From assembly GCA_030650415.1 (NCBI GenBank), contig JAUSEG010000025.1, positions 11,916-75,915 on the forward strand: 64,000 bases of DNA. The letters are read 5' to 3'. Both the position numbers and the translations under genes were made by a program. Within the stretch, counting starts at the first letter, position 1. The number at the start of each line of letters is the position of its first letter. A model generated the notes under the pieces. That model was not told the DNA's origin. It saw only the letters and a program-made list of their open reading frames with translations, and did no database searches. This stretch comes from a bacterium (lineage in GTDB: Bacteria; Patescibacteriota; Patescibacteriia; Patescibacteriales; GWC2-42-12). This document shows positions 26,849-59,936 of the stretch, one piece after another.

Positions 26849-27571
26849 ATGTATTCAGAAAAAATAAACCCCGTTAGAAAAATGTCATTTACACCATTAG
26901 AAAAAATTTCTAATAAATTTTCTAACGGGGTAAATTTTAAAATAATTATCGCCCTGACTCTCTATCTGGTTTCGCTCTTCGCCTCTAACACTCTCGGCCT
27001 TAAACTCATGCCCTTTTTCTTCGGCACTCATCTATCGGTCGCGGTTTTTTTCTTTCCCTTTGTTTTTTTGACCACCGACGTCATCGGGCAGGTCTATGGC
27101 AAACCAATGGCTAAAAATTTTGTTTGGGCCGGTTTTTTGTCCATTCTGATATTTTTAATCTACTCGGTTATTTCCATAATGGCGCCTTGGTCTGGAGATA
27201 ATTTTATGCCTAAAGAATGGTTTGACACGATTTTCGGCGTTTCTTTCCGCATGTCTATAGCTTCGCTCCTCGCCTACATTATCGGCGAATACCAGGATAT
27301 TCTATCGTTTTTCTTTTTCAAAAACAAAATGAACGTAAAAGCTTTCTGGTTAAGATCTAATTTATCAAATCTCTGGTCGCAATTAATCGATACCCTGATT
27401 TTCATGTTTGTAGCTTTCCTGGGAATTTATTCGGTCAAAACCATTCTCTTAATCAGCCTGCCCTGGTGGCTTTATAAAGTCGGCATGGGCCTAATCTATA
27501 CCCCGCTTTCTTATTTAGGAATATATTTACTGCAACATGAAAATTCAAGCGATAAAAACCAGAATATTTAA
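26849..27571 (+). CDS. yhhQ: Queuosine-precursor transporter (YhhQ/DUF165 family)
   Basis: Multi-TM protein. FFFPFVFLTTDVIGQVYGK and the overall pattern resemble E. coli YhhQ. The start is uncertain (26849 or 26882), and the first ~30 codons overlap a palindromic element. Confidence 0.7.
   Translation: MYSEKINPVRKMSFTPLEKISNKFSNGVNFKIIIALTLYLVSLFASNTLGLKLMPFFFGTHLSVAVFFFPFVFLTTDVIGQVYGKPMAKNFVWAGFLSILIFLIYSVISIMAPWSGDNFMPKEWFDTIFGVSFRMSIASLLAYIIGEYQDILSFFFFKNKMNVKAFWLRSNLSNLWSQLIDTLIFMFVAFLGIYSVKTILLISLPWWLYKVGMGLIYTPLSYLGIYLLQHENSSDKNQNI
26866..26934 (+). repeat. Family D palindromic element (variant) over the yhhQ 5' end
   Basis: AAACCCCGTTAGAAAAA ... TTTTCTAACGGGGTAAA. The ATG at 26882 lies in the loop. 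Confidence 0.75.
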
Positions 27572-28244
27572 ACCCGCTGAAAAACTTTTGCCGTTTATAG
27601 AAAGCTATGTTTCGGCCATCCAAGAAAAAACTATTTTAGTCGTCACTTCGAAAATCGTGGCGCTGTCCGAGGGCCGGATAGTAAAAAAGTTTAATGAAAA
27701 AACCAAGCTTGCAATCATTAAGCGCGAAAGCGACTTTATTCTGCCAACTAAATTCGTTTACTTAACGATTAAGGACGGCGTAATCATGGCTAACGCCGGA
27801 ATCGATGAATCGAACGCCAACGGCCAAATTATCTTACTGCCGAAAGACAGCTTTAAAGCGGCGAACGAAATCAGAAATTACTTCAGAAAAAAATACCAGC
27901 TGAAAAATTTCGGCGTTTTATTAACCGATAGCCGCTGTTTGCCTCTGCGCGCCGGCATAGTCGGCGTGGCTTTAGGCTATGCCGGCTTCAAAGGCTTAAA
28001 AGACTATCGCCGACGCCGGGATATTTTTAATCGGCCATTTAAATATTCTCGAGTTGATGTGGCTGATTCGCTGGCCACGGCCGCGGTGCTTTGCATGGGC
28101 GAGGGCGATGAAAAACAGCCTCTTGCGGTTATCACCGACGCGCCGGTTCAATATACTAACAGAACAAATAAGCACGAACTGAAAATAGATATTAGGGAAG
28201 ATCTGTATGGACCGATGTTTAAAGCTATAGGAAAGAAAAAATAG
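27537..28244 (+). CDS. CofE-like (F420-0:gamma-glutamyl ligase family) protein
   Basis: ANAGIDESNA, LLTDSR and AAVLCMGEGDE motifs are typical of PF01996-type proteins. The ORF overlaps the yhhQ 3' end by 35 nt. Confidence 0.6.
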   Translation: MKIQAIKTRIFKPAEKLLPFIESYVSAIQEKTILVVTSKIVALSEGRIVKKFNEKTKLAIIKRESDFILPTKFVYLTIKDGVIMANAGIDESNANGQIILLPKDSFKAANEIRNYFRKKYQLKNFGVLLTDSRCLPLRAGIVGVALGYAGFKGLKDYRRRRDIFNRPFKYSRVDVADSLATAAVLCMGEGDEKQPLAVITDAPVQYTNRTNKHELKIDIREDLYGPMFKAIGKKK

Positions 28245-28503
28245 GCAGGAATTTTGGTTTAGCCATATTAAATATTTTATCCAAGAAAAAACGCGCATGG
28301 CCTGAGAGCTGTGCGCGTTATTTGTAGGTTTTATTTGGGACCAACGAACCCTTGGATTGAAAAAACAAAGATGAGAGAGCGGCACGAGGCTTGTTAGCAA
28401 CTAACTCGCGCCGCCCCACGATTTCCTTCAAACGAAGGTTCGTAATCTCCATTGCCTTTCGGCGTGCCGAATTTCCGAAACCCGGCGAAAGTGATTTTCC
28501 GCT

Positions 28504-29049
28504 TTATGGAAGCGGTAGAATGGTGGTCCCCTCCAGCCCGTTCTCCAATTGCTCCTCGGTCGGATACCAGTAGGCTGCATCTACTGGGACACCGACCAGC
28601 GACCGACGGACCATGATGCCTCTTGCACCGGCGATTGACCTCGCCCTCTCATACTCCTTGGTCATGAGGTTGCCGGTGACCATCACCAGTAACCTATTCC
28701 TTAGTGCTTCTGACAGCACTCTTTTTTCCAGAAGCTCCCAATTATCGATGACCACGACCGATATTCCGGCTCCGAGTATGACCTCGTGGCCAACACCCTC
28801 AAACTGTTTAGTTATCCACGAACCTGTAAACACAGGCTGGCTTACACCAATTTTTTGCCCCCAGGATCCCTCAGTACGGAAGTTCTCTAGGAGAACACTC
28901 CATCCCCCAGAAAAACCTCCGAAGTTGGAATAATAGGAACGCATATCTTCTGTTGTGTTGAATTTCATAGCAATGGAGTTTTTTGTTCTGTTTTCGGTTT
29001 TATTTAAAGACCAAACGGTAGTAACATACCGCGTTGCCAGTTCTGCCAT
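28504..29049 (-). CDS. Hypothetical protein (GC-rich island)
   Basis: 181-aa ORF. Promoter TTGACA-17-TATCAT lies on the minus strand at ~29185-29213, giving a ~135-nt leader. I recognise no domain. Confidence 0.55.
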   Translation of the reverse strand: MAELATRYVTTVWSLNKTENRTKNSIAMKFNTTEDMRSYYSNFGGFSGGWSVLLENFRTEGSWGQKIGVSQPVFTGSWITKQFEGVGHEVILGAGISVVVIDNWELLEKRVLSEALRNRLLVMVTGNLMTKEYERARSIAGARGIMVRRSLVGVPVDAAYWYPTEEQLENGLEGTTILPLP

Positions 29050-29302
29050 GCGCAGTTACTGACAGCTTACTTTTCCCACCAAGTAAAGGCGGACATTTAG
29101 GCGCATAAATTATCCGCCCGAATATCTGCCTTCACTTAATGGCTAATTTTTTAAAGTCCAATCTTCAAAAGTATTATTAAATGATAGCATACTTTCTTAA
29201 TATTGTCAAGTAAAAAACACTAAAATTTACTAATATTAGCTAATTTATATAAAAGTCGATACAACAAAAAAACAGGACCTTTAAATTCCTGTTTTTCTGC
29301 TC

Positions 29303-29497
29303 TTATTTTTTCTCTTCTCCGCTCTTCTCAGAATGCCAGCCGCAGCAGCTATCCCCGCTTTTCTTTTTCATCATGTAAAGACCAGCCAAAATTAAAATTA
29401 CCGGCCAGATAATCGACCAATTTAATACCGGGATCAAATTCAAATTTTCCAAAAGGAAAATCGTTCCTAAGATAATCAATAGCCATGGCATCATCAT
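29303..29497 (-). CDS. Small two-TM membrane protein (LiaF-TM/DUF5668-like)
   Basis: 64 aa with two hydrophobic helices and a Cys-containing charged tail. Confidence 0.5.
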   Translation of the reverse strand: MMMPWLLIILGTIFLLENLNLIPVLNWSIIWPVILILAGLYMMKKKSGDSCCGWHSEKSGEEKK

Positions 29498-29555
29498 AAA
29501 TTTTATGTTTAATAATTAATATTACTTTTTTCAATTGCCAGGACTATCAATTTTT

Positions 29556-29679
29556 TGTCATGCTGGAGCGAAACGAAGTGAAGCGATAGCATCTCACTGT
29601 TCACGAGTCTTTCACGAGATTCTATCGGTCGCTCCGCTCCCTCCAGAATGACAGCAAAAACGGCCGCTCGCAATGACAT
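29556..29679. repeat. Family C palindromic element followed by an orphan family-A right arm
   Basis: TGTCATGCTGGAGCG..GCGATAGCATCTC // GAGATTCTATCGGTCGC..CTCCAGAATGACA, followed by CGCTCGCAATGACA at 29666-29679. Confidence 0.8.
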
Positions 29680-29686
29680 ATAGAAA

Positions 29687-30760
29687 TTATTCTCCCAATT
29701 CCTTCTTAAACCAATCCACCCAGGGAATTTTTACCGGATTAACATTATTCAGCATGGCCAAATAATAGGTTACCCAAGAGCCGAACTGCAGCATCTCAAA
29801 AGCCTGCTCCAGCTTAGTGGCGCCGGATAGCTTATGCTCAATATACTTTATGCCATTTTTCTTAACTATCTTCTTGGTTAAGTGCGCCCTCTTTATTACC
29901 CGAGGATGATAGAACGGCGAATCAATAAAGAAAAAAGCTAAATTGTCATTGTTGCTCTTCGGATTAGCCAGACTTTCCAGGGCAAAATGATTCATATCAG
30001 GCAATTCCAAAAAACAGGCGAAATTCTTACTGGTTTCGTTAAATTGATTTCTTATTATTTTTAAATTACCAACTAAAAACTCCGCACCCACGATTACCGG
30101 TATTTTGTTGGATAATTCAATAGCCGCCTGCTTAGCCAAATTAGTTTTAATCGGCTCGCTTATTTTTAATTTAACATTAGAAGATTCTAAACTATCAATA
30201 ATTTTTTCTATCTCTTTAATTTCAATTTCCAGTAATCCGGCTCGAGAGAGTAGCCTGGCTACGCCAAGAACCGAATAACCTAAACCCATCCTGGGCTGGC
30301 CGCTAGGATTTTTGTCCGTCTTAAAAGTTAGCCCCGGAATCTTGTCTTTTTTCATGAGTCGCGACAGCCGGCTATCGCCCTGTTCGCAGATGGCAATAAT
30401 TTTAGCGCCGCGTTTTTTCATCTCCGGATAAACGCTCAAAACTTCTTCGGTGTTACCCGAATAAGAAGAAAACAAATACAAGGTATTCTTATCGACAGAA
30501 GCCGGAACTTCGTAGCCAGGAGTAATAGTAATCGGCGCTTTTATTCTGTCATTCAAGGCCGCACTGATCATACTGACGCCAATATTCGATCCGCCCATAC
30601 CGTTTACCACTACCTGCGTTACCCGGTCATATGCTGGCGGCAGCTTAATTAAATCGGCCTGTTCTAAAAGCTCTTTCATCTGTAAAGTTAAAGATTCAAT
30701 CGACTCGGCGACCCGGCCTAAATCTAATTTTTTATATAACTTTTGATCGTCTAAATTCAT
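29687..30760 (-). CDS. SIS-domain bifunctional phosphoglucose/phosphomannose isomerase
   Basis: 357 aa. A SIS pattern (VVNGMGGSNIG ... LFSSYSGNTEE) with a C-terminal PGI/PMI-type domain. Confidence 0.65.
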   Translation of the reverse strand: MNLDDQKLYKKLDLGRVAESIESLTLQMKELLEQADLIKLPPAYDRVTQVVVNGMGGSNIGVSMISAALNDRIKAPITITPGYEVPASVDKNTLYLFSSYSGNTEEVLSVYPEMKKRGAKIIAICEQGDSRLSRLMKKDKIPGLTFKTDKNPSGQPRMGLGYSVLGVARLLSRAGLLEIEIKEIEKIIDSLESSNVKLKISEPIKTNLAKQAAIELSNKIPVIVGAEFLVGNLKIIRNQFNETSKNFACFLELPDMNHFALESLANPKSNNDNLAFFFIDSPFYHPRVIKRAHLTKKIVKKNGIKYIEHKLSGATKLEQAFEMLQFGSWVTYYLAMLNNVNPVKIPWVDWFKKELGE

Positions 30761-30952
30761 AAAATAATTTAAAATTTATGTTAATTTTATTATATCATAT
30801 TTTCAATTAAAACTGTAATTATAAAGCAACGCTAGCGGCTTGATTTTTGCCTGCGCCTATGTTAAATTTAGGCCATCAGCCTAAAGCTGATTTTAATTAA
30901 TAGTATGGTTTTTTATTCATAGTTGTTAATTGTTAATTTTTAACTTAACCAT

Positions 30953-31678
30953 ATGTCAGGACATTCCAAGTGGGCAACAACTAAGAGGTCAAAAGCCATC
31001 GTTGACGCTAAAAAAGGCGCGATTTTTACCAAATACGGAAGATTAATCACCATTGCAGCTAAAAAAGGCAGCGACCCAACCACTAATTTTAGTTTGCGCA
31101 TGGCTATGGAAAAAGCCCGAGAGGCCAACATGCCTAAAGAAAATATCGAGCGCGCCATCAAGCGCGGCACAGGCGAACTGGCCGGCGCGCAGATTGAAGA
31201 ATTAACCTACGAAGGCATCGGCCCGGCCAAATCGCAATTTATAATTAAATGCTTAACCGACAATAAAAACCGCACGGCCGCGGAAATCAGGCATCTCTTA
31301 GCCGATGCCGGGGGCTCGCTGGGCGCGGTATTATGGAACTTTGAATTAAAAGGCGTAATTTTAATAACCGCCGAAGAGTTAAACGGCAAAAATTTAATGA
31401 ATAATGACGATTTTGAACTGAAATTGATTGACGCTGGCACGGAAAATTTCATTAAAGAAAGCGAAGGCGCCACGATTTATACCAAGACCGAAGATCTGCA
31501 AAAAGTTAAGCAATTTTTAGACGGAGAAAACATCAAAACCGAATCGGCGGAAATCGAATATGTGGCGAAAGACCATGGCCAGCTGTCGGACGAAGAAAAA
31601 GAAAAAGTTCAAAAATTCATCGAAACCCTGGAGAATAACGAGGATATTACAAACTATTATACCAACGTGATTGTATAA
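30953..31678 (+). CDS. yebC: YebC/PmpR family DNA-binding regulator
   Basis: MSGHSKWATTKRSKA start and family-typical length. Confidence 0.9.
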   Translation: MSGHSKWATTKRSKAIVDAKKGAIFTKYGRLITIAAKKGSDPTTNFSLRMAMEKAREANMPKENIERAIKRGTGELAGAQIEELTYEGIGPAKSQFIIKCLTDNKNRTAAEIRHLLADAGGSLGAVLWNFELKGVILITAEELNGKNLMNNDDFELKLIDAGTENFIKESEGATIYTKTEDLQKVKQFLDGENIKTESAEIEYVAKDHGQLSDEEKEKVQKFIETLENNEDITNYYTNVIV

Positions 31679-31704
31679 AAAAACGCGAAATAGAATAACT
31701 ACCG

Positions 31705-32205
31705 ATGAAACAAAAAATCTCCAATCTCATACTTGGCATCGACCCCGGAATCGCCGACACCGGTTTCGGTGTAATTAAAAATGAAAACAACAAATTAACC
31801 TGCCTCGACTACGGCTCGATAAAAACTTCGGCCAAACTTAATCTATCGGACAGATTGGAAATAATAAACTTAGAGCTCAATAAATTAATTAAAAAATATC
31901 AGCCGAATCTTATCTCGATTGAAGAATTATTTTTTTGCAAGAATGTAAAAACCGCTCTAATCGTCGGCCAGGCCAGGGGCGTAATTATTTTAACCGCTAA
32001 ACAAAACAAAGTCCCAATCGTCGAATTTACTCCATTGCAAGTAAAGCAGGCGGTTTCAACCTACGGCCAAGCCGATAAACAACAAGTGCAAAGAATGGTA
32101 AAAATCATTTTAAACCTTAAGAAATTGCCGAAACCCGATGACGCGGCCGATGCTTTAGCCATCGCGATTTGCGCTGTCAATAGTCTAACAATTCGTAACT
32201 TATAA
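31705..32205 (+). CDS. ruvC: Holliday junction resolvase RuvC
   Basis: ILGIDPGIADTGFGVI, and DDAADALAIAIC near the C-terminus. Confidence 0.9.
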   Translation: MKQKISNLILGIDPGIADTGFGVIKNENNKLTCLDYGSIKTSAKLNLSDRLEIINLELNKLIKKYQPNLISIEELFFCKNVKTALIVGQARGVIILTAKQNKVPIVEFTPLQVKQAVSTYGQADKQQVQRMVKIILNLKKLPKPDDAADALAIAICAVNSLTIRNL

Positions 32206-36899: not shown

Positions 36900-37490
36900 A
36901 TGGCTGTTAATACTAAAATTTACGACAAACAATTTTTTAATAACACTATTGAGCTTGAAAGCCAATCTGCTCAAGCGATGGTGAAAACATTAATTAAGCA
37001 TTTCAAGCCGAAATCAGTGGTTGATATTGGTTGCGGTGCTGGTATTTATTTAGCCGAATTTAAAAAGTTTAATATTAAAATACTGGGCTTTGACGGCTCG
37101 CCGGCGGCCATCATCGCCTCCCCGGTTGGTAATATGATCAAATTACATGATTTATGCCAACCACTTAAGTTAAATTGTCAATTTGATTTATGTCTATGCC
37201 TCGAAGTGGCCGAACATTTAGAAAAAACTTGCGCTGACATCCTGGTCGACACTTTAATAGGCCTTTCCAAAACCATGGTCTTTACTGCCGCCACGCCCGG
37301 CCAAGGACCGATAAGTATCGGGCATGTTAATGAACAACCGCCTGAATATTGGCTAAAATTATTCAAACGAAGAAATTTTTTAATTAATAAAATCTTAACG
37401 GAGAAAATTAAGCGAGAAATGATTGATCAAAACGTGATTTGGTGGCTGACTAAAAATTTAATGATATTTAAAAAACATTCACCCCGTTAG
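36900..37490 (+). CDS. Class I SAM-dependent methyltransferase
   Basis: Motif I VVDIGCGAGIY. The last codons overlap the 5' arm of a palindromic element. Confidence 0.7.
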   Translation: MAVNTKIYDKQFFNNTIELESQSAQAMVKTLIKHFKPKSVVDIGCGAGIYLAEFKKFNIKILGFDGSPAAIIASPVGNMIKLHDLCQPLKLNCQFDLCLCLEVAEHLEKTCADILVDTLIGLSKTMVFTAATPGQGPISIGHVNEQPPEYWLKLFKRRNFLINKILTEKIKREMIDQNVIWWLTKNLMIFKKHSPR

Positions 37491-37592
37491 ATATTTATTA
37501 TAATTATATTGGTTGTTCTATTAAAGCCCTATTAATTATAAAGACCGACGGGACATAAAAATATGAAAATAAATAAATCTAACGGGGTAAAA
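37478..37592 (+). repeat. Family D palindromic element spanning the methyltransferase stop and the glgA-2 start
   Basis: TTCACCCCGTTAGATATTTATT ... AATAAATAAATCTAACGGGGTAAA. The ATG at 37563 lies inside the element. Confidence 0.85.
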
Positions 37593-38987
37593 AATAATCT
37601 ACTAAAAATCTTAATCGCCGCCGCCGAAGTTACGCCAATCGCTAAAGTCGGCGGCTTGGGCGATGTTATCGGCGCGCTGCCCAAGGCTTTAAGTAAGCTT
37701 AATTTAGACGCGCGAGTGATTATTCCTTTTTACGGGGCCATCGATAGAAATAAATATAAAATAAAATTAATTAAACAAAAAATAGGAGTCGGCGAAGCAT
37801 TAATTAACCTTTGGCAAACCAATTTGCCGAATTCAACCGTACCGGTCTATTTAATTGAGCATAATTTTTTTAAAGGCCGGGAAATTTACTCTAACGCTCT
37901 GGCCGATGACCCTAAGGATACGAAAAAATATCTATTCCTCGCCCACGCGATTTTAGAAAGCCTTAAAGCCCTTAATTTTAAGCCAAACGTAATTCATTTA
38001 AACGACTGGCATACAGCGGCCGTTCCCCTGCTTCTTAAAACCGACCGTCAAAATAACGAATTTTTTAAACAAACAAAGACTCTATATACTATCCATAATC
38101 TAGCTAATCAGGGACCGGCTGGCCAGAAAACCCCAGTCAAATCCGGTGAAACCGGAGCAAAGCTATTTGACGGGGTAAATTACATGGCCGAGGGTATTAT
38201 AAATTCCGGCATAGTTAGCACAGTCAGCCCAACCTACGCTAAAGAAATTTTGACTAAAAAATACGGTGCCAGGCTAGAAAATATTTTATTGAAAAGAAAA
38301 AACCAACTTTATGGCATACTAAACGGCATTGATACGGATTTTTTTAATCCGGCCGCGGATAAACTTATTAAAAAAAACTATTCGCTTGAAACCATTGAAA
38401 ATAAATTGAATAATAAGCTATCTTTACAGAAGAAAATGGGCTGGCCGGAAGATAAAGACATCGCGCTCGTCGGCTTAGTTACTCGCTTTGTCTGGCAAAA
38501 AGGCATTGAATTAATTACAGAAAAATTTTCAGAATTAAATTGCCAGTTTGTATTCTTAGGCACGGGAGAAAAACGCTATGAAGAGGCCTTGCTTAATTTA
38601 GCTAAAAAATACCCGGGTAAATTTAAAGTTTTAATAAAATTTGACGAAAAGTTGGCGCACGAAATTTATGCCGGCTCGGATATTTTTCTGGTTCCATCTC
38701 GTTTTGAACCTTGCGGACTGACGCAGATGATTGCCATGCGCTACGGCTCGGTGCCAATCGCGCGCGCCACCGGCGGACTTAAAGACACGGTCAACGCTAA
38801 AGTTGGTTTTATTTTTAAACAATTTGCTGCAACTAAATTTTATGATACTCTGCAAAAAGCTTTAAATATTTATTATAACCGGCCGAAAGCTTGGAACCAA
38901 CTTAAAAAAAATGGCATGAGGCAAGATTTCTCCTGGAATAAATCAGCCAAAGAATATTTAAAACTCTATAAAAAATTAATAAAATAA
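37563..38987 (+). CDS. glgA: Glycogen/starch synthase (GT5) copy 2
   Basis: AAEVTPIAKVGGLGDV and EPCGLTQMIAMRYG. The first 12 codons (MKINKSNGVKNN) are encoded by a palindromic element. Confidence 0.88.
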   Translation: MKINKSNGVKNNLLKILIAAAEVTPIAKVGGLGDVIGALPKALSKLNLDARVIIPFYGAIDRNKYKIKLIKQKIGVGEALINLWQTNLPNSTVPVYLIEHNFFKGREIYSNALADDPKDTKKYLFLAHAILESLKALNFKPNVIHLNDWHTAAVPLLLKTDRQNNEFFKQTKTLYTIHNLANQGPAGQKTPVKSGETGAKLFDGVNYMAEGIINSGIVSTVSPTYAKEILTKKYGARLENILLKRKNQLYGILNGIDTDFFNPAADKLIKKNYSLETIENKLNNKLSLQKKMGWPEDKDIALVGLVTRFVWQKGIELITEKFSELNCQFVFLGTGEKRYEEALLNLAKKYPGKFKVLIKFDEKLAHEIYAGSDIFLVPSRFEPCGLTQMIAMRYGSVPIARATGGLKDTVNAKVGFIFKQFAATKFYDTLQKALNIYYNRPKAWNQLKKNGMRQDFSWNKSAKEYLKLYKKLIK

Positions 38988-39369: not shown

Positions 39370-39820
39370 TAAAATATAAATTTATATATATGCGGCTATA
39401 AATGCTGCTAAAACGCACCTTAACAATCAAACAAAAAAAATAAAAAACATATGTCATAAAAACACATGAAGAAGCTGTGTTGATCAGAAACAGATAAAAT
39501 CAATAACAAAAAGACACAATTGAAAAAATTGCCTAATTAACACAGCTCCCCTTCCTGCTTTATCATCAAAGACTGTCTCAGGCAGCCAAAATCTTGGTAA
39601 GGCAAGCATGGGGAACGCAAAAACATCGCTGGACTCAAACAAGCGGTGTTTTTGTTTTAGCAAAAAATGTTGTATAATATATAAAGTTAATTTCCAATTT
39701 CTAATTTTCAATTTTCAATGAATTTTCAATGTATTAATGAAATTATTATTTGAAAATTTAAACATTAAATCATTGGAAATTGTTTAAAAATTAAAAATTG
39801 GAAATTAAAAATTTTATTTT

Positions 39821-47590: not shown

Positions 47591-47801
47591 TGTCATTGCG
47601 AGGAGGCCGTACTCGGCCGACGCGGCAATCTATTTGCTTGTCATTCCCGCGCAAGCGGGAATCCAGGAGAAAACAGTAAAAACGCATTATCTTCTTTAAA
47701 CCCTTTGTGAAATAAATGTTTTAAACAAGCGGGCGAGTAGTAAAAATATCTCTACTACTCCCTCCTGGATTCCCGATAGCCTTTGGCTTCGGGAATGACA
47801 G
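47591..47801. repeat. Family A left arm plus a family B inverted pair
   Basis: TGTCATTGCGAGGAGG..GCGGCAATCT is followed by TGTCATTCCCGCGCAAGCGGGAATCCAGGAG ... CTCCTGGATTCCCGATAGCCTTTGGCTTCGGGAATGACA. Confidence 0.8.
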
Positions 47802-47810
47802 AAAAAAAAT

Positions 47811-48305
47811 ATGCCCAAACTAATAAAATTATCATTTACCATTTTATCTATTCTTTTAGCGTTTTTTGTTATTGATCCAGCGCTGGCTGGTTCTCCTCTT
47901 GATGGCTATACTTTTGAAAATTTTGATGGAGAAAACCCACAATCAGATGGTCTTCTACCAACCGCGCACGGTCCAAAATGCCCTGACGGCTCGCCAAATT
48001 GCGGCAACTATACTTTAAATGATATGGTGGGTTTGGTTTTAAAAATATCCGAATTTATCTTAGGTCTGGTCGGTTCGCTGGCTCTATTGGCCTTTGTGTA
48101 TGGCGGTATTATGTGGATAATTTCAGCCGGCAACGCCGAGAGAGTAGATATAGGAAAGAAAGCCATCATCGGCGCGGTGGTCGGCTTAGCTATAGTCTTT
48201 ACGAGTTTTATGATTATCCAATTGGTCTATAGCGCTTTAGGAATTCCACGCGCCGATAAAGGAGAATGGTCTGTTTCCAGTTGGACCTCTGGTTGGTCTA
48301 AATAA
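47811..48305 (+). CDS. TrbC/VirB2-like (type IV secretion pilin-like) membrane protein
   Basis: Signal peptide followed by two C-terminal hydrophobic helices (LVGSLALLAFVYGGIMWIISAGN..AIIGAVVGLAIVFTSFMII). The architecture matches pilin-like proteins common in CPR genomes. Confidence 0.45.
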   Translation: MPKLIKLSFTILSILLAFFVIDPALAGSPLDGYTFENFDGENPQSDGLLPTAHGPKCPDGSPNCGNYTLNDMVGLVLKISEFILGLVGSLALLAFVYGGIMWIISAGNAERVDIGKKAIIGAVVGLAIVFTSFMIIQLVYSALGIPRADKGEWSVSSWTSGWSK

Positions 48306-48347: not shown

Positions 48348-48521
48348 TGTCATTGCGAGGAGCGTAAGCGACGAAGCAATCTCTGGTTAGAAACACTTAA
48401 CCAATCTAAAATTAAATCTCTTAAATCAAAATTAAACTTGTTAATCAATGCTTTTTCTTTATTTTTTATTATTCTTTCTTGCCAGAGATTGCTTCGCTTC
48501 TTGCGGAAGCTCGCAATGACA
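48348..48521. repeat. Family A palindromic element with a long AT-rich centre
   Basis: TGTCATTGCGAGGAGCGTAAGCGACGAAGCAATCTCTGG ... CCAGAGATTGCTTCGCTTCTTGCGGAAGCTCGCAATGACA. Confidence 0.85.
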
Positions 48522-53051: not shown

Positions 53052-53159
53052 AGGTTGTGCAATAATGTTGGTTTTGAGCGCATATGAAATTGTAGCAATT
53101 TTTTTTAAAAATTGCCCAAATTTCATCTTAAGCGAAAAACCAACATTATTGCACAACCT
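53052..53159 (+). repeat. Family X long hairpin
   Basis: The 24-bp arms are perfectly complementary: AGGTTGTGCAATAATGTTGGTTTT / AAAACCAACATTATTGCACAACCT. Conserved GAGCGCATAT and ATCTTAAGCGA are present, with an inner stem GAAATT-GTA-GCAATTTTT. Confidence 0.8.
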
Positions 53160-53171: not shown

Positions 53172-54458
53172 ATGAAATATTTTTTCATTTTAGGCACCAA
53201 TCCAACCCTATCATTAGCCGAATTAACCACGGTAATTAATCATGGAAAATTTTCTCTGATACAAAAAGATATCGCCATTTTAGAATGCGCTGAAAAAATC
53301 GAAACCAGTGTCATAAATAAAATCGGCGGGACCATTAAGATCGGTTCTGTCCGCGAAGAAATTGATTCTTACGCCGTTAAAGATATCTTAAATTCAATCG
53401 CCAATTTCGCCAAACCGGAAAAAATCGAAACAAAATTTAACTTCGGCATTTCTTTTTATGGCAAAATAAAAATTCACCCCGTGAAATCCGCTCCCCAGTT
53501 GAATCCGACAAAGTCGGTGCGAAGCAATTCAACGGGGCAAGAAGCGGGAATTCCGCTAAGAGCGGAATTATTTCACGGGGTAAATCTGAAAGTTCTAGGT
53601 ATGAAACTTAAAAAATTGCTTAAAGAGTCGGAAATTAGTAGCCGCTGGGTTATAAGCAAAGAACCAACTTTGTCCAGTGTAGTGGTTGAACAAAATAAAT
53701 TAATTACGGACAGGGGAGTGGAAATTGTGATTATTCAATTCAATAAAAAACTTTACATAGGAAAAACTTTAGCCGTTCAACCGTTTAAAGATCTATCTTT
53801 CCGCGATTATGGCCGGCCGGCTCGCGACTCTCACTCTGGCATGCTACCGCTAAAACTAGCTCAAATAATGATAAATATGTCGGGCGCACGCCTTAATGAA
53901 ACTATCTTAGACCCGTTTTGCGGTTCAGGCACAATTGTAACCGAAGCTATGCTTATGGGATATAGTAATATTATCGGCGCCGACCTTTCCGATCGAGCGA
54001 TTACCGACACCAGGACAAATATTGAGTGGATTAAAAAAAATTACGAGCTACCGATTACAAATTTAAATTTAAACAACATTGATGCGACACAAATTTCAAA
54101 ACAAATTAAGCCAGACTCGGTTGACGCCATCATCACCGAACCATACTTAGGTCCGCAGCGAGGACGGTTTGATGTAAGTAAAACAATCAACGAGCTGGAA
54201 CGGCTTTATTCCCGAAGCTTATCTGAATTTAATAAAATCTTAAAACCGGGCGGAAAAATAGTTATGGTCTGGCCGGTATTCTGCGGCCAATTTAAAAATA
54301 TTTTTCTTAATCCGGATTTAAACGACCTGAAAATTATCAACCCCATACCGGAAAATCTACAAACTAATATCTTCATAAAAACAACTGTCCGCCAAACTAT
54401 TATCTACGGCCGCGAACTGCAAAAAGTCTGGCGGGAGATAGTGGTGTTAGAGAAATAA
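53172..54458 (+). CDS. SAM-dependent RNA (m2G-type) methyltransferase with an N-terminal THUMP-like region
   Basis: Motif I DPFCGSGTIVTEA and motif IV ITEPYLGP. The ORF contains the 112-bp palindromic insert at 53473-53584. Confidence 0.65.
   Translation: MKYFFILGTNPTLSLAELTTVINHGKFSLIQKDIAILECAEKIETSVINKIGGTIKIGSVREEIDSYAVKDILNSIANFAKPEKIETKFNFGISFYGKIKIHPVKSAPQLNPTKSVRSNSTGQEAGIPLRAELFHGVNLKVLGMKLKKLLKESEISSRWVISKEPTLSSVVVEQNKLITDRGVEIVIIQFNKKLYIGKTLAVQPFKDLSFRDYGRPARDSHSGMLPLKLAQIMINMSGARLNETILDPFCGSGTIVTEAMLMGYSNIIGADLSDRAITDTRTNIEWIKKNYELPITNLNLNNIDATQISKQIKPDSVDAIITEPYLGPQRGRFDVSKTINELERLYSRSLSEFNKILKPGGKIVMVWPVFCGQFKNIFLNPDLNDLKIINPIPENLQTNIFIKTTVRQTIIYGRELQKVWREIVVLEK
53473..53584 (+). 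repeat. Family D-type outer palindrome with nested hairpins, inside the methyltransferase CDS
   Basis: TTCACCCCGTGAAAT ... ATTTCACGGGGTAAA encloses CCCCAGTTGAAT/ATTCAACGGGG, CCGACAAAGTCGG, and GCGGGAATTCCGC/CCGCTAAGAGCGG. Confidence 0.8.
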
Positions 54459-54459
54459 T

Positions 54460-55506
54460 ATGCCAAAAACTAAGAAACCGAATCGCCGGCCGGACAACCC
54501 GGCCCATTCCGTGGCTTCTCTATTTAAACAGCTCGGACGGGAAGAAAAAATTAAAGTGCGGCTTGAGCCGGCCTGGCAACAGGTGGGAAAAATTACGCGC
54601 CCGGACGGCACCGCGACCTATTTTCGAGGCACTAATTTTGATTTAAACGGCCTGGGCGCCACGGAAATCGCGCGGGACAAGGGTTACGCCGCTTACTTTT
54701 TAAAACTGGCCGGCTTCAGGGTTATCCCGGGCAAAACCTTTTATTCGCCTAAATTTGCCAGACAGCTAAACAGCCGGAACGACCCGACCGCGGCTTATGA
54801 ATACGCGAAAAATAAAATCGGCTGGCCAGTAGTAGTTAAACCGAATAGCCTTTCACAAGGGCGGCTGGTTTGCGTGGCTGATGACAAACCAACTTTCGCG
54901 CAAGCGGCGCAGAAAATTTGCCGATTAGACCGAGTCTTTTTGGTTCAGCCTTTGCTTCTCGACCATGATTATCGGGTGGTAATTCTAGACGGCGAAGTTA
55001 TTTCCGCTTATGAAAGACTGCCGCTTTTCGTTATCGGCGACGGCATTGCCACCATCGACGAGCTGCTAAATAAAAAACAAAAAAAATACGAAGCGAGCGG
55101 CCGCGATACGACCATAGACAAGCGAGACTTTCGCATTGATCTAAGGCTTAAAAGGCATTATCTTAATCGCGCCTCCGTTTTAGCCAAAGGGCAAATTTTT
55201 AATTTACTGGACAATCGCAATTTATCAACCGGCGGCGAAGCCATTGATGCAACCGACGAAATTCACTCTTCGTATAAAAACCTGGCCGTTAAGATCGTCC
55301 GCGGCATGGGCCTTCGGTACTGCGGCGTTGATTTAATGGTGCAAAGCGACATCAAAAAACCCCTTGATCCTCGGACAAATAATTATTACGTTATAGAAAT
55401 AAATTCGGCTCCGGGCATTGATAATTACGCCAAATCGGGCGCCAAGCAGAAAAAAATTGTTAAAGAAATTTACCGGAAAATTTTAAAAAAATTAAACAAC
55501 CAATAA
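54460..55506 (+). CDS. ATP-grasp ligase (RimK/cyanophycin-synthetase-like)
   Basis: PVVVKPNSLSQGRLV, and the C-terminal YVIEINSAPGI pattern of ATP-grasp enzymes. The start is 1 nt after the methyltransferase stop. Confidence 0.6.
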   Translation: MPKTKKPNRRPDNPAHSVASLFKQLGREEKIKVRLEPAWQQVGKITRPDGTATYFRGTNFDLNGLGATEIARDKGYAAYFLKLAGFRVIPGKTFYSPKFARQLNSRNDPTAAYEYAKNKIGWPVVVKPNSLSQGRLVCVADDKPTFAQAAQKICRLDRVFLVQPLLLDHDYRVVILDGEVISAYERLPLFVIGDGIATIDELLNKKQKKYEASGRDTTIDKRDFRIDLRLKRHYLNRASVLAKGQIFNLLDNRNLSTGGEAIDATDEIHSSYKNLAVKIVRGMGLRYCGVDLMVQSDIKKPLDPRTNNYYVIEINSAPGIDNYAKSGAKQKKIVKEIYRKILKKLNNQ

Positions 55507-55637
55507 GGCGAGGAGGTTTATTTATCGCTTAGATAAAATTTGAGTATTTTTTCTTAAAATTATAATAAACTGGGTCTGGATAATTTTAAGAAAAAATAAT
55601 ACAATTTTATATGCGCTCTAAATAAACTTCCTCGCCT
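55506..55637 (-). repeat. Family X long hairpin (opposite orientation)
   Basis: The reverse complement reads AGGCGAGGAAGTTTATTTA GAGCGCATAT AAAATT GTA ... AAATTTT ATCTAAGCGA TAAATAAACCTCCTCGCCT. Confidence 0.75.
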
Positions 55638-55655
55638 TATTAATTTATCTGAAAA

Positions 55656-56726
55656 CTAATTATTAATCAAAAAATTGCAAACATCCCCGTCCTGGATAAC
55701 ATATTCTTTGCCTTCGGTTCTAATGAGGCCAAGCTCGCGCGCCCGCGCTTCGTTTCCGGCCTCAATAAATTTTTGCCAATTGATCACTTCGGCGCGGATA
55801 AAACCTTTGGTAAAATCCGTGTGAATTACGCCGGCGGCCTCGGGCGCTTTAGTCCCGCGCTTAATCGTCCATGCCCGGGTTTCATCCGCGCCGGTGGTCA
55901 AAAAAGTGATTAAACCTAAAATTTCATAAGAGGCTTTAATTAATTTAGCCAGTCCGCTCTCGCTTAAACCCAGCTCTTTAACATACTCGGCCTGCTCCGC
56001 CTCGGGCAAATTCGCGATTTCTTCTTCAATCCTGGCGTTAATTTCAATAACTTTTCCTTCCCAATTTTTCACTTCCGCCTTGGCGCTGGCCGAATCATCT
56101 TTTACGTTCAGCGCATAAATTATCGGCTTAATGGTTAAGAGTCCTAAAATTTTTACCTCTTTCATTTCCTCTTCGGTAAAAATTAAATCGCGCGCCGCTT
56201 TGCCGGCTTCCAACTGGGTTTTCAATTTTTCTAACACGCCTTTTAAAAATATCATCTCTTTACTGCCGCTCTTGGCTTCTCGAACCACTTTTTCCAAGCG
56301 TTTTTCTACCGTAGCTAAATCGGCGAAAATCAATTCCAAATTGATGGTCTCCCGGTCGCCTTCGGGATCGATCTTACCATTAACATGGATAATATTATCG
56401 TCTTTAAAATCGCGAACCACTTCTAGAATCGCGTCACACTCGCGGATATGGGATAAAAATTTATTGCCCAACCCCTCGCCCTCGGACGCGCCCTTAACCA
56501 AACCGGCGATATCCACGAATTCAATAACGGTCGGAATAATTTTTTTCGGTTTAGAAATAACCGCCAATTTTTCCAACCGTTCATCCGGAACTTTAACCAC
56601 GCCGACATTCGGGTCAATGGTGCAAAAAGGATAATTAGAGGCGTCGACTTTATTTCTGGTTAAAGCATTAAATAGGGTTGATTTGCCAACATTAGGCAAG
56701 CCGACTATGCCGATTGATAAAGACAT
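55656..56726 (-). CDS. ychF: Ribosome-binding ATPase YchF
   Basis: GIVGLPNVGKSTLFNAL, a DIAGLVKGAS motif, and a C-terminal TGS-like domain. Confidence 0.93.
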   Translation of the reverse strand: MSLSIGIVGLPNVGKSTLFNALTRNKVDASNYPFCTIDPNVGVVKVPDERLEKLAVISKPKKIIPTVIEFVDIAGLVKGASEGEGLGNKFLSHIRECDAILEVVRDFKDDNIIHVNGKIDPEGDRETINLELIFADLATVEKRLEKVVREAKSGSKEMIFLKGVLEKLKTQLEAGKAARDLIFTEEEMKEVKILGLLTIKPIIYALNVKDDSASAKAEVKNWEGKVIEINARIEEEIANLPEAEQAEYVKELGLSESGLAKLIKASYEILGLITFLTTGADETRAWTIKRGTKAPEAAGVIHTDFTKGFIRAEVINWQKFIEAGNEARARELGLIRTEGKEYVIQDGDVCNFLINN

Positions 56727-56731
56727 TTTTT

Positions 56732-56780
56732 TGTCATTCCCGCAACCTGTCCCGAGCTTGTCGAGGGAAGGCGGGAATCC
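56732..56780. repeat. Solo family B hairpin
   Basis: TGTCATTCCCGC-(23 nt)-GCGGGAATCC, starting 6 nt upstream of the ychF start codon. Confidence 0.75.
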
Positions 56781-56890
56781 ATTACATTATTATTAATCTA
56801 TCTTGAACTTACCAGAGATTCAATAATTTTACAAACTTTTATAAAAAATACTCTCGCACAAGCTGTCTCGTGCGAGAGTTGACAAAAAAG

Positions 56891-57523
56891 TCAATCTGCC
56901 AGCGCGCTAAAGCCGTGGCGGACGACGCTGGTCTTCAAAGAACCAAGCGGCCGCTCGGATCGGCCGCGCGGTAAAACGCAAAGGCTATCGAAGCTGACGT
57001 CGCCAAGCCAGGTCCAAACAAGAATCAAACGTCCTGCATTAAAGCGAAGGCATGGGACAAAGAAGCTTGAAGCCAAATTGCTTAAAAGCGTGCCGGCAAA
57101 AATGATTACCTTATCGTGAACCGCTTCCGGAACTTCCTCCTGATGAACCAAGACGAATTTTGCGTCGCAAAGGCCATGATTGGTATTATCGTCAACGGCC
57201 TTCTGCCTCATCTCTTTGCCGGTCAGGCTGGGCTGGTCCTCCCTAAGAAGAGGGATGAAATCCAGATCAGCGACCGATCTGATGGCCGGAAAATTATCCT
57301 CGATCACCTCCCATTGTTTATCTTTTCCATGTCGAGGTATAAGCTCCGGGCAAATAATCTCGCAAGGAAATTGAGTAAGCCTAATCTCGCCACTGCGCAA
57401 ACCGCGAACGATCCGCCAGTTATTTCTAAACCAGTCGAGGTCTTCGCCGATTCCCTCAGGTCCATACTCTCCCAATCGCTCGTGGAGCAAGAGCTCCCCA
57501 ATTTGTTTCGGATTAATATTCAT
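56891..57523 (-). CDS. Hypothetical protein (GC-rich island)
   Basis: 210-aa ORF. The leader ends ...GAAAGGAAUCAGGAAUG, with two GGA motifs at the start codon. I recognise no domain. Confidence 0.55.
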   Translation of the reverse strand: MNINPKQIGELLLHERLGEYGPEGIGEDLDWFRNNWRIVRGLRSGEIRLTQFPCEIICPELIPRHGKDKQWEVIEDNFPAIRSVADLDFIPLLREDQPSLTGKEMRQKAVDDNTNHGLCDAKFVLVHQEEVPEAVHDKVIIFAGTLLSNLASSFFVPCLRFNAGRLILVWTWLGDVSFDSLCVLPRGRSERPLGSLKTSVVRHGFSALAD

Positions 57524-57886
57524 TCCTGATTCCTTTCAACCTGCCGGCAATTCGTTTTAGCATAAGAGCCATTAGGCATCAAATTCCAAAACGCTCTACC
57601 AAGCAGAAATAGCGGCCGAAAGACATTCCCGGCCAGCTTTCTATCTAGAGTAACTATAGGCAAAAAGCTAGCCGGGAAATTTATATCTAAAAGAACGATA
57701 GTAACAACTAAATATAGCACTTTAAAATAATTTGTCCATAGCCAATAACCTTATATTTTGTTTTAAAAGCTTGACTTTATGGCTAGTTTTTCCTAATCTT
57801 ACCGCACGGAGGAAAATAATAACGAACATTAAAATCTAACTCGAACCTCTCACCCAAAACTCAAATCCTCAACCACGGAAAACATC

Positions 57887-58480
57887 ATGAAAATACAACG
57901 AGCACTCTTATCAGTATCTGACAAAACCGGTTTAGTCGCCTTCGCCAATGTCCTGGTGGAAGCAGGCGTGGAACTGCTTTCTACCGGCGGTACGGCCAAG
58001 ACCCTGCGTGAGGCTGGCCTGCCGGTCAAAGAAGTCAGCGAGTATACGGGCTTTCCTGAAATGATGGACGGCCGCGTCAAGACGCTACACCCAAAGATCC
58101 ATGGCGGTTTGCTGTACCTCCGCGGCAACGAACAACACGAAGCCGCGGCGCGCGCGCATGGCATAATGCCGATTGACCTGGTAGTCGTCAACCTCTACCC
58201 GTTTGAGCAAGTCGTGGCCAGGCCCAACTCAACCATTCATGAAGCCGTTGAAAACATCGACATCGGCGGGCCGAGCATGCTCCGCAGCGCGGGGAAAAAC
58301 TATGAAAGCGTCACTGCCGTGGTTGACCCGGCCGATTACGCCAAGGTCGCCGAGCAAATCAAGGCAGCCGGCAATACTACGCTGGAATTACGCCGCAAAC
58401 TAGCCGCAAAGGCTTTCAATCGTACTTCAGAGTACGACGAAGCCATCAGCCAACGTCTGGTTGGAATAACAGTGAGCTGA
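57887..58480 (+). CDS. purH: Stand-alone IMP cyclohydrolase (MGS-like) domain, equivalent to the N-terminal ~40% of PurH; AICAR transformylase domain absent (GC-rich island)
   Basis: [12 protein letters not shown]..., [23 protein letters not shown] and [11 protein letters not shown] are canonical PurH N-terminal motifs. The ORF stops at aa 197 and is followed by a terminator at 58543-58572. No continuation is open in any frame. Confidence 0.8.
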
Positions 58481-58542
58481 CTTCTGACGAAAACCGCGGG
58501 TTTTAAAGACACTGATCAGAAAAGGAGGTCTAATCAGTCAAG

Positions 58543-58572
58543 CCGTCTTGCTTTAAGCGAGACGGTTTTTTT
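58543..58572 (+). terminator. Rho-independent terminator
   Basis: CCGTCT-tgctttaagc-GAGACGG followed by T7. Confidence 0.7.
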
Positions 58573-58641
58573 ATTGGCTTTCAAAAACAATCAAAATAGG
58601 CTAAAATAAAAATATACGGTGTCGGACACCGCTAAACGATT

Positions 58642-59556
58642 ATGAAAACCAATTTAATAAAAGACCAAGAGCTAATGAAAATTTTGGACATAGATTTAAA
58701 GACTCTAAACAGATTTAAGCAAATCAGAAGTGAAACCATGGCCGAAGCGAAAAAATTAAGCCAAAGAAAAAATAGAAAGCTAAAAGTTTTGGGCATTTCC
58801 GGCTCGGCCAGGGATCTCATGGATATGTCGCAGGAAGATTCCAACTCCGGCGAATTGTTAAAAAATTGCTTGGGTTATTGCGAGAAACTTGGCGCCGAAA
58901 CCGAATTTATTCAATTAAAAAAATATAATATAAAATATTGCAAAGCCTGCTACTCCACGGTTAATACGCAATGTCATTTCTATTGCTCATGTTATCCAAA
59001 AGGCACTCCGCAAGGCGATGATATGACCAACATTTTATACGACAAAATCCTCTCGGCCGATATCATAATTTTCGCTACGCCGGTTAACAATTTTAAAATT
59101 TCCACTTTGCTGGCGACCTTTATTGACCGCTGCATAAGTCTGGACGGCAGTCTTTCTCCGGCTAATCCGCAAGCGCCTAAAGACAAAGAACTGAATATTA
59201 AACACATGAAATTCATAGAACTAACGGCCGACAATAATTTACCGGGTAGTGGCCTTCTAAGAAGATTTACGGGAAAAGTCGCCGGCATTATTGTTACCGG
59301 CCACGAAGCCGGCGCCGCCATGGCTATAAGCTCTTTATCGATGATTTTAAATAATTTTGGCATGATGCTCCCGCCCTTTAACAGCCTCTACGCCATGTCT
59401 TCTGTCTGCCGCTCTACTTACGAAGATAAGCCGATCGTCCTAAGCGATTGTTACGATGAGGAACTAAAAGCTTTAGCCAATAATCTTGTTTTAGCGGCCA
59501 AGCTGGCAAAAAATTGCAAAATTACCGACTGGAAAAATGATTATACCGCAAATTAA
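58642..59556 (+). CDS. Flavodoxin-fold NAD(P)H-dependent FMN reductase / iron-sulfur flavoprotein-like
   Basis: KVLGISGSAR, a Cys cluster (CKACYSTVNTQCHFYCSC), and IIFATPVNNF. The start may be the internal ATG at 58738. Confidence 0.6.
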   Translation: MKTNLIKDQELMKILDIDLKTLNRFKQIRSETMAEAKKLSQRKNRKLKVLGISGSARDLMDMSQEDSNSGELLKNCLGYCEKLGAETEFIQLKKYNIKYCKACYSTVNTQCHFYCSCYPKGTPQGDDMTNILYDKILSADIIIFATPVNNFKISTLLATFIDRCISLDGSLSPANPQAPKDKELNIKHMKFIELTADNNLPGSGLLRRFTGKVAGIIVTGHEAGAAMAISSLSMILNNFGMMLPPFNSLYAMSSVCRSTYEDKPIVLSDCYDEELKALANNLVLAAKLAKNCKITDWKNDYTAN

Positions 59557-59571
59557 ATTAAATAATTTTAT

Positions 59572-59802
59572 ATGTCAAAAATTTCCAACACCAAAGAAAA
59601 TTTCGCCAAGTGTACCTGCGGTAGCTGTCCGACTTACCAGGCCAGCAGTTGCGCCAAAAAAAAACCGGAAAAACTTTACTGCGCGACGGGCAAATCGAGT
59701 TGCGATCTCGCTCGCAAAGGCTGTATCTGCGGCGCCTGCCCGATCTGGTCGGAATATAATCTGTCCAACGGTTATTTTTGTTTTAGCGGCGAAGTTAATT
59801 AA
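59572..59802 (+). CDS. Small Cys-rich protein (DUF2769-like)
   Basis: 76 aa with CTCGSCPTY ... CICGACPIW motifs. The family call is from memory. Confidence 0.5.
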   Translation: MSKISNTKENFAKCTCGSCPTYQASSCAKKKPEKLYCATGKSSCDLARKGCICGACPIWSEYNLSNGYFCFSGEVN

Positions 59803-59827
59803 TTATTTATTTAAAATACCAATTTTA

Positions 59828-59936
59828 TTCACCCCGTTAGATATTTTATTTAATTTTTGCAAATTTATAAAAAATTTGCGATTATTTTTAAATATTTTTC
59901 GGGCATAAAAATTATGTTAAAATCTAACGGGGTAAA
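59828..59936 (+). repeat. Family D palindromic element spanning the cupredoxin start
   Basis: TTCACCCCGTTAGATATTTTA ... TAAAATCTAACGGGGTAAA. The ATG at 59914 lies inside the element. Confidence 0.85.

Follow-up and report, generated by a model that had tools for sequence, protein, structure and literature searches.

We analysed a window of 64,000 nucleotides (nt) from a patescibacterial genome (GenBank assembly GCA_030650415.1, contig JAUSEG010000025.1, positions 11,916 to 75,915), in which an earlier note, made from the letters of the DNA, had described four copies of a palindrome that it called family D. The genes beside these copies agreed with those that the note had named, namely a Vut_1/YhhQ transporter gene (yhhQ), a small methyltransferase gene followed by a second glycogen synthase gene (glgA-2), a Trm11-like methyltransferase gene, and a cupredoxin gene with a lipoprotein signal peptide. 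By its protein matches, the window belongs to a patescibacterial metagenome-assembled genome near Candidatus Falkowbacteria. Comparison with related genomes indicates that two of the copies lie within genes as in-frame insertions, while the other two lie on gene starts and have supplied the gene with a new start codon and N-terminus.

Palindromes and genes in the window

We searched the window for CCCC…GGGG pairs with complementary adjacent 8 nt and recovered exactly four palindromes, the same four as had been described. The cores are 62-106 nt long, extend from CCCC to GGGG, and typically end in CCCCGTTAGA…TCTAACGGGG (Table 1). A T-N-N-A tetranucleotide stands on both sides of each core: copy 1 has TAAA twice, and copies 2-4 have TTCA on the left and TAAA on the right. 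The arms are complementary over 11-25 nt, no core contains an open reading frame (ORF) of its own, and a long hairpin was predicted for every copy, with folding energies of -24 to -55 kcal/mol and z-scores of -4.7 to -8.3 (-29.9 kcal/mol and z = -4.7 for copy 2). The motif CACCCCGT occurred four times in the window against 0.64 expected, and none of 100 shuffles gave four occurrences. Unpaired matches to ACGGGGTAAA at 38170-38179, inside glgA-2, and to CACCCCGT at 23745-23752 on the minus strand are probably chance or coding sequence. Copies 2 and 4 have CGGG(A)CATAAAAAT(T)ATG in common, as had been noticed earlier, and an alignment of copy 4 with the copy-2 element of a relative shows ~74% identity across 122 nt. 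Comparison with orthologous loci lacking the element, which had been proposed as a check, revealed empty sites in close relatives for all four copies, which are therefore insertions. The four palindromes are real and non-random.

Copy 2 lies at the junction of the small methyltransferase gene (36900-37490) and glgA-2 (37563-38987). In two syntenic loci without the element (L128, 2424-3011/3001-4359, and L129) these genes overlap by 11 nt (…AAAAAATATGAAAAATAA…), and copy 2 is inserted in this former overlap, as is an element in L127, a locus of another species with 77% nucleotide identity. The methyltransferase gene ends inside glgA-2 in the empty loci and at the TAG of the 5' arm in the window; copy 2 has separated the two genes and given the methyltransferase a new C-terminal end, …HSPR*. 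The native start position of glgA-2 is occupied by GTA at 37587-37589, and the sole in-frame ATG is inside the element. Orthologs of the glgA-2 product begin MKNN(L/K)LKILIAAAEV, and the protein encoded in the window reads MKINKSNGV-KNNLLKILIAAAEV, where KNNLLKILIAAAEV opens KNNLLKIL. The N-terminal extension that had been noticed against glgA-1 measures 8-9 residues, both relative to glgA-1 (Pfam domain start at residue 15 versus 6) and relative to the MKNNLLKIL orthologs. A different insertion, of 11 residues (LLVLRSFSEGG), follows residue ~5 in the glgA-2 orthologs of three other species (P0129, P0143 and P0149), and the 5' end of glgA-2 has therefore been struck by at least two repeat families.

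Copy 4 occupies the native ATG-AAA with which the cupredoxin lipoprotein gene began; this gene now extends from 59914 to 60309. Cupredoxin orthologs, one of them 87% identical, begin MKKIIWLG, and the N-terminus in the window reads MLKSNGV-KKIIWLG…LSGC, the last part being the lipobox. Here too the native start position is a GTA (59932-59934) and the sole in-frame ATG is inside the element. The empty site in L130 reads …CCAGTTTTATGAAAAAAATTATTTGG, and the filled site in the window …TTTTA-TTCA-core-TAAA-AAAAATTATTTGG. In L131, whose cupredoxin is 57% identical, the same ATG is filled by an element with an unrelated interior, flanks TTCA…TGAA and an in-frame GTG at the old start.

Copy 1 lengthens yhhQ (26849-27571; Pfam: Vut_1) by 66 nt, in frame, between codons 6 and 7, and encodes NPVRKMSFTPLEKISNKFSNGV. 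The protein of a relative from the same 90%-identity cluster lacks the element and has 218 residues, and in it MFNEKI is followed directly by NFKIIIALTLYL (opening NFKIII). The 240-aa product in the window is otherwise collinear with it and reads MYSEKI, then the 22 added residues (NPVRKMSFTPLEKISNKFSNGV), then NFKIII at the start of NFKIIIALTLYL. At the DNA level, the empty site in L252 (GAAAAAATAAATTTTAAAATAATT) contains a single TAAA and the filled site reads GAAAAAA-TAAA-62-nt core-TAAA-TTTTAAAATAATT, a comparison in which copy 1 shows a perfect 4-bp TAAA target duplication. A similarity between the interior of copy 1 (TPLEK) and the N-termini of distant YhhQ proteins (TLSEK) had been considered as homology, and this was rejected after the close empty ortholog was found.

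Copy 3 adds 108 nt, in frame, to the Trm11-like methyltransferase gene (53172-54458) and separates a conserved I from a conserved N. The earlier description of an in-frame insert at this position was correct: its 36 residues are missing from the closest orthologs (81% and 76% identity; alignment A2), which are otherwise collinear and whose DNA at the empty site reads …AAA ATC AAT TTA… and …GAG CTA AAC TTA…. At this codon three loci from more distant species (L124-L126) also carry a homologous insert that is shorter, such as I-NPVKSSYAGAKQFHGV-N flanked by TTAA…TAAA. Copy 3 corresponds to an insert of the L125 type plus a nested CCCC…GGGG palindrome, which supplies the 16 extra residues. The AlphaFold model of this methyltransferase had a mean predicted local distance difference test score (pLDDT) of 57, with the whole N-terminal half below 50, and is therefore uninformative on whether the insert forms a surface loop. 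Other Trm11-like homologs have peptide insertions at at least three further sites (alignment A2, columns ~280-330 and 480-540) with the motifs SLRGSASDRSNL, IPAQAGIQ and TKGAGGI, which look like translations of other palindromic repeat families.

Table 1. Coordinates of the palindromic elements and associated features in the window.
Feature	Position	Strand	Basis or remark
Copy 1: TAAA + 62-nt core (26869-26930) + TAAA	26865..26934	+	empty-site comparison
Copy 2: TTCA + 106-nt core (37482-37587) + TAAA	37478..37591	+	empty loci L128, L129; filled L127
TAG stop of upstream methyltransferase	37488..37490	+	within 5' arm, TCA CCC CGT TAG
Element-borne ATG of glgA-2	37563..37565	+	first start codon after in-frame stop at 37539
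Copy 3: TTCA + 104-nt core (53477-53580, arms CCCCGTGAAAT/ATTTCACGGGG) + TAAA	53473..53584	+	
Nested CCCC…GGGG palindrome in copy 3 (CCCCAGTTGAAT…ATTCAACGGGG)	53493..53537	+	codon alignment, fold
Copy 4: TTCA + 101-nt core (59832-59932) + TAAA	59828..59936	+	empty site L130, filled L131
Element-borne ATG of cupredoxin	59914..59916	+	NCBI 131-aa product begins there
Other inverted repeats	11560-11730, 20562-20712, 39687-39808, 47624-47815, 48363-48505, 53052-53159, 55502-55641		

The earlier note had stated that the palindromes bracket the start codons of three genes and that the only usable ATG of these genes lies between the arms. Both statements hold for glgA-2 and for the cupredoxin gene. 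The start of yhhQ is not bracketed, because the in-frame ATG at 26849, which is the start annotated by NCBI, precedes the 5' arm and matches the N-terminus of the empty relative.

Long inverted repeats unrelated in sequence were found at seven or more other places in the window (Table 1). Their arms measure 24-62 nt and are 71-100% complementary, and the types GTCATTCCCG…CGGGAATGAC and AGCAATCTCTGG…CCAGAGATTGCT are among them. The source genome carries several palindrome families. An inverted repeat with 55-nt arms (71% complementarity) at 63753-63866 overlaps a tRNA-Asp gene on the minus strand (63832-63906).

Distribution, flanks and reading frame

We scanned species genomes, one per species, for the arm pair ACCCCGTTAGA…(35-95 nt)…TCTAACGGGGT; the flank statistics are those of the listed copies, and the counts in this section apply to the matches listed. 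The pair was found in at least 120 stretches, against an estimate of ~4 chance matches, and these came from more than 10 phyla, including Patescibacteria, Saccharibacteria, Omnitrophota, Pirellulales/Phycisphaerae/Brocadia, Desulfobacterota, Nitrospirota, Nitrospinota, Cloacimonadota, Bacteroidales and others. A search of metagenome contigs with a 19-mer from the 5' arm gave at least 120 matches. The interior varies freely in sequence and in length (35 to ~400 nt), and whole elements range from 37-nt hairpins to ~290-400 nt; between phyla the interiors are unrelated, and their base composition follows that of the host. Several loci in other genomes have 2-4 copies within 8 kb, and solo arms are rare (6 in ~0.8 Mb). 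The smallest forms are perfect 37-nt hairpins (TTCACCCCGTTAGATATTTATTATCTAACGGGGTGAA), for example at L141:119-155 (minus strand) and L173:2372-2408. A subfamily of ~290 nt shares an interior (…TATGTTTTATGTTTATGTACTGCAAAGC…) and was seen in L144, L159, L168, L208 and L240.

The flanks of these copies proved to be highly regular. T was present at -3 in 120/127 copies and A at +3 in 121/127, neither of which was demanded by the search pattern, and the flank is preceded by a purine and followed by a pyrimidine, giving R-TNNA-Y. In 82 of 129 copies (64%) the left and right flanks agreed in their two central nucleotides, where 17.7 copies were expected and 10,000 permutations never gave more than 33. 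Taken together with copy 1, these repeats bear the signature of transposition with a 4-bp duplication. Relative to their empty sites, copies 2-4 gain the core plus 4 nt.

A separate arrangement was seen in L012, where two inverted repeats of ~330 nt (2046-2369 and 4832-5155, 89-95% identity), each with a complete palindromic element, surround the gene of a 686-aa secreted protein. The arrangement may represent an invertible segment or an artefact of assembly; the 330-nt repeats were considered as a transposon, and this was rejected.

As described earlier, the 3' arm is read in one frame in all four copies of the window, ACGGGGTAAA giving x-G-V-K/N. This bias had been offered as a sign of function. 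Analysis of the arms showed that TCTAACGGGGTAAA contains TAA in two of its three frames, leaving only the S-N-G-V-K/N frame open in copies 1, 2 and 4 (two of three 3'-arm frames are open in copy 3), and that one frame of the 5' arm gives TAG while the in-frame pass reads N/H-P-V-R. The S-N-G-V frame is therefore constant because the other frames of the 3' arm carry stops, and a copy lying across a gene can persist only if it is read in this frame. In the start-codon copies it is also fixed by the target, a TGAA inside ATG-AAx, since the last G of the element plus TG fills the old start codon. The frame bias is real, but it is no evidence of function. The placement of the 3' arm at codons 5-10 was approximate, S-N-G-V being codons 6-9 in glgA-2 and 4-7 in the cupredoxin gene.

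Searching for arm pairs and relating them to gene starts had been suggested as a further check. Across phyla most copies were intergenic or at gene ends, and hits on starts were nevertheless recurrent: at 23 of 258 element sides the first possible start of the outward gene was inside the element or at the junction, and at 22 further sides the stop codon of the inward gene fell in the flank or arm. Where TGAA is directly duplicated, the left side reads ATGAA or GTGAA in 14 of 15 copies, and 9 of the 15 had a long ORF from the junction GTG, compared to ~10% in other flank classes. Among metagenomic copies of the subfamily in the window, 13 of 110 coincided with a gene start and were read in the S-N-G-V frame; in 10 of these 13 AAA follows, indicating a former ATG-AAA. 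Start-codon hits are thus a recurrent and specific outcome, and their apparent excess would be most simply explained by target preference together with survivorship in genomes that have almost no intergenic space.

At four sites in Jorgensenbacteria and another genome (L015:3025-3130 and 6120-6225; L084:6333-6450 and 6917-7045) the 3' arm and a TTTA flank are read as …SLTG/FTLIE…, the prepilin cleavage and methylation motif, in which GGG of the element gives the Gly at -1 and the duplicated TTTA plus C gives Phe-Thr. The type IV pilin-like genes at these loci seem to carry element-derived leader peptides.

Origin of the palindromes

The four copies amount to multiple dispersed copies within 64 kb, and their size (62-106 nt cores) and terminal inverted repeats are those of a miniature inverted-repeat transposable element (MITE). 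We consider it very probable that family D is a small, non-coding, hairpin-forming mobile element of the kind represented by MITEs and repetitive extragenic palindromic (REP) sequences. As a palindromic mobile element it is previously undescribed, and it is unusual mainly for its spread over many phyla and for the repair of start codons by its G-rich ends. A full-text literature search for the arm sequences gave only unrelated primer and sequence matches, and no description of family D was found in the papers searched for MITEs and palindromic elements in the candidate phyla radiation (CPR)/Patescibacteria.

Insertion of the element takes place at R-TNNA-Y sites and adds the core plus 4 nt, seen in most cases as a direct 4-bp target duplication. 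Intergenic space in the compact Patescibacteria genome is very short, and presumably only copies that spare genes would persist. Copies 1 and 3, whose added nucleotides number a multiple of three and lie in an open frame, would be tolerated peptide insertions, in the manner of the Rickettsia palindromic elements (RPEs). Copies 2 and 4 have hit the TGAA inside ATG-AAA, the commonest gene start in this genome. By the sequence and the empty sites, a hit of this kind parts the gene from its own ATG and leaves the last G of the element and the TG of the target in frame at the old start, a codon that is GTG in some relatives and GTA in the window. The gene then initiates at the ATG inside the element and gains an M…S-N-G-V N-terminal extension, and at copy 2 the upstream gene, which formerly overlapped, in addition ends at the TAG of the 5' arm. 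The earlier suggestion that the element donates a start codon and an N-terminus is confirmed by empty and filled sites for glgA-2 and the cupredoxin gene, and fails for yhhQ, where the insertion follows codon 6. Overall, the earlier observation was partly confirmed and its interpretation partly supported.

Several results weigh against this explanation. No autonomous partner or transposase was found in the 20 ORFs of the window scanned with Pfam or between distant arm pairs; mobility is deduced entirely from the empty sites and duplications. Arm pairs 300-5000 nt apart enclosed only housekeeping genes and no autonomous element, and 24 unpaired 5' arms from metagenome loci proved to be minimal hairpins, ~290-nt forms or contig ends, again with no autonomous element. 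In copies 2, 3 and 4 the left flank, TTCA, does not repeat the right one (TAAA or TGAA) directly, and a TTCA…TRAA pair is present in 19 of 127 listed copies across phyla, where simple target duplication fails. The wider class with TTYA on the left and TRAA on the right comprises 28 of the 127, copies 2-4 included, and the mirror arrangement TRAA…TTYA none. In piggyBac, the 4-nt overhang on the excised ends derives from the donor site. It is possible that in family D, as in piggyBac, flanking overhangs travel with the element, which we regard as a lead and not as a result. The arms are identical over 11-19 nt across phyla, for which this explanation does not account. Furthermore, the methyltransferase codon and the cupredoxin ATG are filled in distant relatives and empty in closer ones, and repeated precise loss or a very strong site preference is therefore needed. 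Finally, the arms of the glgA-2 element are more conserved (95-97%) than their coding neighbours (74-78%), where neutral decay of a dead element predicts otherwise.

This last result bears on the other interpretation of the earlier note, in which the hairpins are, or have become, cis-acting elements of translational control. The stem would sequester codons 2-9 beside the downstream AUG, and at copy 2 a ribosome terminating at the 5'-arm TAG would melt the stem and permit initiation of glgA-2, replacing the coupling once provided by the 11-nt overlap. The three orthologous glgA-2 elements, from the window, L127 and L191, are 97% invariant in the 5' stem and 95% in the 3' stem, compared to 74-78% in the adjoining coding DNA and 67% in the loop, and a 46-nt run with the ATG and the 3' arm is identical between two genomes that are 77% identical overall. 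The stop of the upstream gene within the 5' arm, the overlap of the genes before insertion and the stability of the hairpins (-24 to -55 kcal/mol) also agree with such control. However, copies 1 and 3 lie within coding regions, and in many phyla the same element adjoins unrelated genes, in either orientation, at their 3' ends or in intergenic DNA; regulation therefore cannot define the family. Start codons are overlapped in only ~9-13% of the listed copies, the interiors are not conserved, close relatives function without the element, and at copy 4 a distance of 25 nt separates the end of the upstream gene from the arm. An Rfam scan of the whole window at gathering scores returned only two tRNAs above cut-off, and permissive Rfam scans of copies 2 and 4 gave generic long-hairpin matches of 20 bits against cut-offs of 80-85 bits, leaving the elements without an Rfam match. 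The orthologous copy is present in only two independent lineages and shows no compensatory changes, and the arm conservation could therefore be due to gene conversion between arms or copies. It may reflect selection on structure, a constraint on the codons of the new N-terminus combined with correction of one arm by the other, or conversion from other copies. Translational control is a possibility with one suggestive observation, the arm conservation, and we consider it unlikely. Donation of a promoter is unsupported, because promoter and terminator scans around copies 1, 2 and 4 found no promoter-like site on the plus strand within the elements and counts were at chance level.

A more inclusive proposal joins transposition to regulation. 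It holds that these are pan-bacterial tiny hairpin transposons with CCCC…GGGG ends and an R-TNNA-Y target, similar to piggyBac/IS1380, whose terminal G-run rebuilds GTG at ATGAA starts or Gly-Phe-Thr at the G/FTLIE prepilin site, and whose arms are constrained by the host through a co-opted hairpin, for example by coupling of glgA-2 to termination in the 5' arm. We give this full combination a rather low probability.

It is also doubtful, in our assessment, that the copies are REP sequences or REP doublets forming hairpins (REPINs) kept by a single-copy host REP-associated tyrosine transposase (RAYT; Y1/HUH), or IS200/IS605 derivatives like the palindrome-associated transposable elements (PATEs) that move as single-stranded hairpins, instead of DDE-type cut-and-paste MITEs. 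The minimal forms are indeed simple 37-nt hairpins such as TTCACCCCGTTAGATATTTATTATCTAACGGGGTGAA, the density is high in many genomes with no transposase nearby, and the recurrent, non-duplicated TTCA…TRAA pair resembles fixed cleavage tetranucleotides rather than a target duplication. Insertion of the IS200/IS605 type produces no target duplication, however, whereas copy 1 shows a perfect one of 4 bp and 64% of the listed copies have direct NN repeats, and no Y1 transposase was detected among the 20 window ORFs scanned. In addition, the ends read TNNA-CCCCGT…ACGGGG-TNNA and do not have the GTAG or CGTC tag of REP superfamilies (PMC3733652).

That the palindromes are attC-like recombination sites of integrons, which are common in many of the host phyla, is extremely improbable and was rejected: the arm heptamers GTTAGAT and ATCTAAC fit the attC core consensus (GTTRRRY and RYYYAAC), and the length (~56-116 nt), conserved stem base and free interior are compatible, but the core motifs stand in reverse order on both strands (CCCC-GTTAGAT…ATCTAAC-GGGG, with GTTRRRY 5' and RYYYAAC 3'), which turns the duplex the wrong way relative to the loop, attC has no counterpart of the outer CCCC/GGGG and TNNA, the copies are in housekeeping genes or between ribosomal-protein genes and not in cassette arrays (neighbours being glgA, yhhQ and the genes for ribosomal proteins, tryptophanyl-tRNA synthetase and phosphoglucose isomerase), and no integrase was found among the 20 window ORFs scanned.

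For annotation, a mobile element of this kind would mean that many gene starts and odd N-terminal or internal segments (…SNGVK…, …NPVR…, SLTG/FTLIE) in Patescibacteria and other uncultivated phyla are element-derived, affecting start-site annotation, signal-peptide prediction and protein alignments. A start-codon insertion that is rescued by the element itself would be a simple route to new N-termini, and identical termini in more than 10 phyla point to a very widespread mobilising activity or to intense horizontal spread. No new kind of regulatory system is revealed.

Comparison with known systems

Like REP sequences and REPINs, family D consists of short, high-copy, extragenic hairpins in which paired arms form longer hairpins, with no classical transposase adjoining. 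REP superfamilies are defined by a GTAG or CGTC tag at the palindrome end, and family D, unlike these, is without such a tag (PMC3733652). It also differs from them in having a target duplication and copies inside genes, and no RAYT was present among the 20 window ORFs scanned.

IS1380 is a bacterial relative of piggyBac, with ends that begin CC and duplications of 4-5 bp. At its target, piggyBac itself duplicates TTAA or variants such as TAAA and TCAA, and it has terminal inverted repeats that start with CCC (PMC10813416). Family D shares with the piggyBac/IS1380 group a 4-bp T-N-N-A duplication and CCC…GGG termini, and the finding of one site filled in some genomes and empty in others would fit precise excision, as in piggyBac. 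We take this as a resemblance only, piggyBac being eukaryotic and no DDD transposase with family D ends having been found in the DNA searched.

The RPEs (Ogata et al., 2000) are in-frame insertions of ~150 bp in many housekeeping genes (reviewed in PMC10969869). Similarly, family D places short palindromes in frame in unrelated housekeeping genes, where a tolerated peptide is added (copies 1 and 3, and the same-codon inserts elsewhere), and it is also present in non-coding DNA. Unlike RPEs, it appears to be of unrelated sequence, occupies other host phyla, more than 10 of them compared to one genus, is smaller (35-116 nt against ~150 bp), has clear TNNA flanks, and repeatedly replaces start codons, a behaviour that we did not find described in the RPE review (PMC10969869). 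The likeness is one of behaviour, and membership in the RPE families of Rickettsia is not claimed.

Family D resembles bacterial MITEs such as Correia/NEMIS, ERIC, Nezha and QMITE (PMC10969869) in its small size, terminal inverted repeats, target-site duplication, variable interiors and many copies, and in insertions at gene boundaries that affect the coding or expression of neighbours. It differs from other bacterial MITEs in that it is without a known parent insertion sequence, its termini are identical across phyla, about a fifth of the listed copies have an inverted pair of flanking tetranucleotides, and its sizes form a continuous series down to a bare hairpin of 37 nt.

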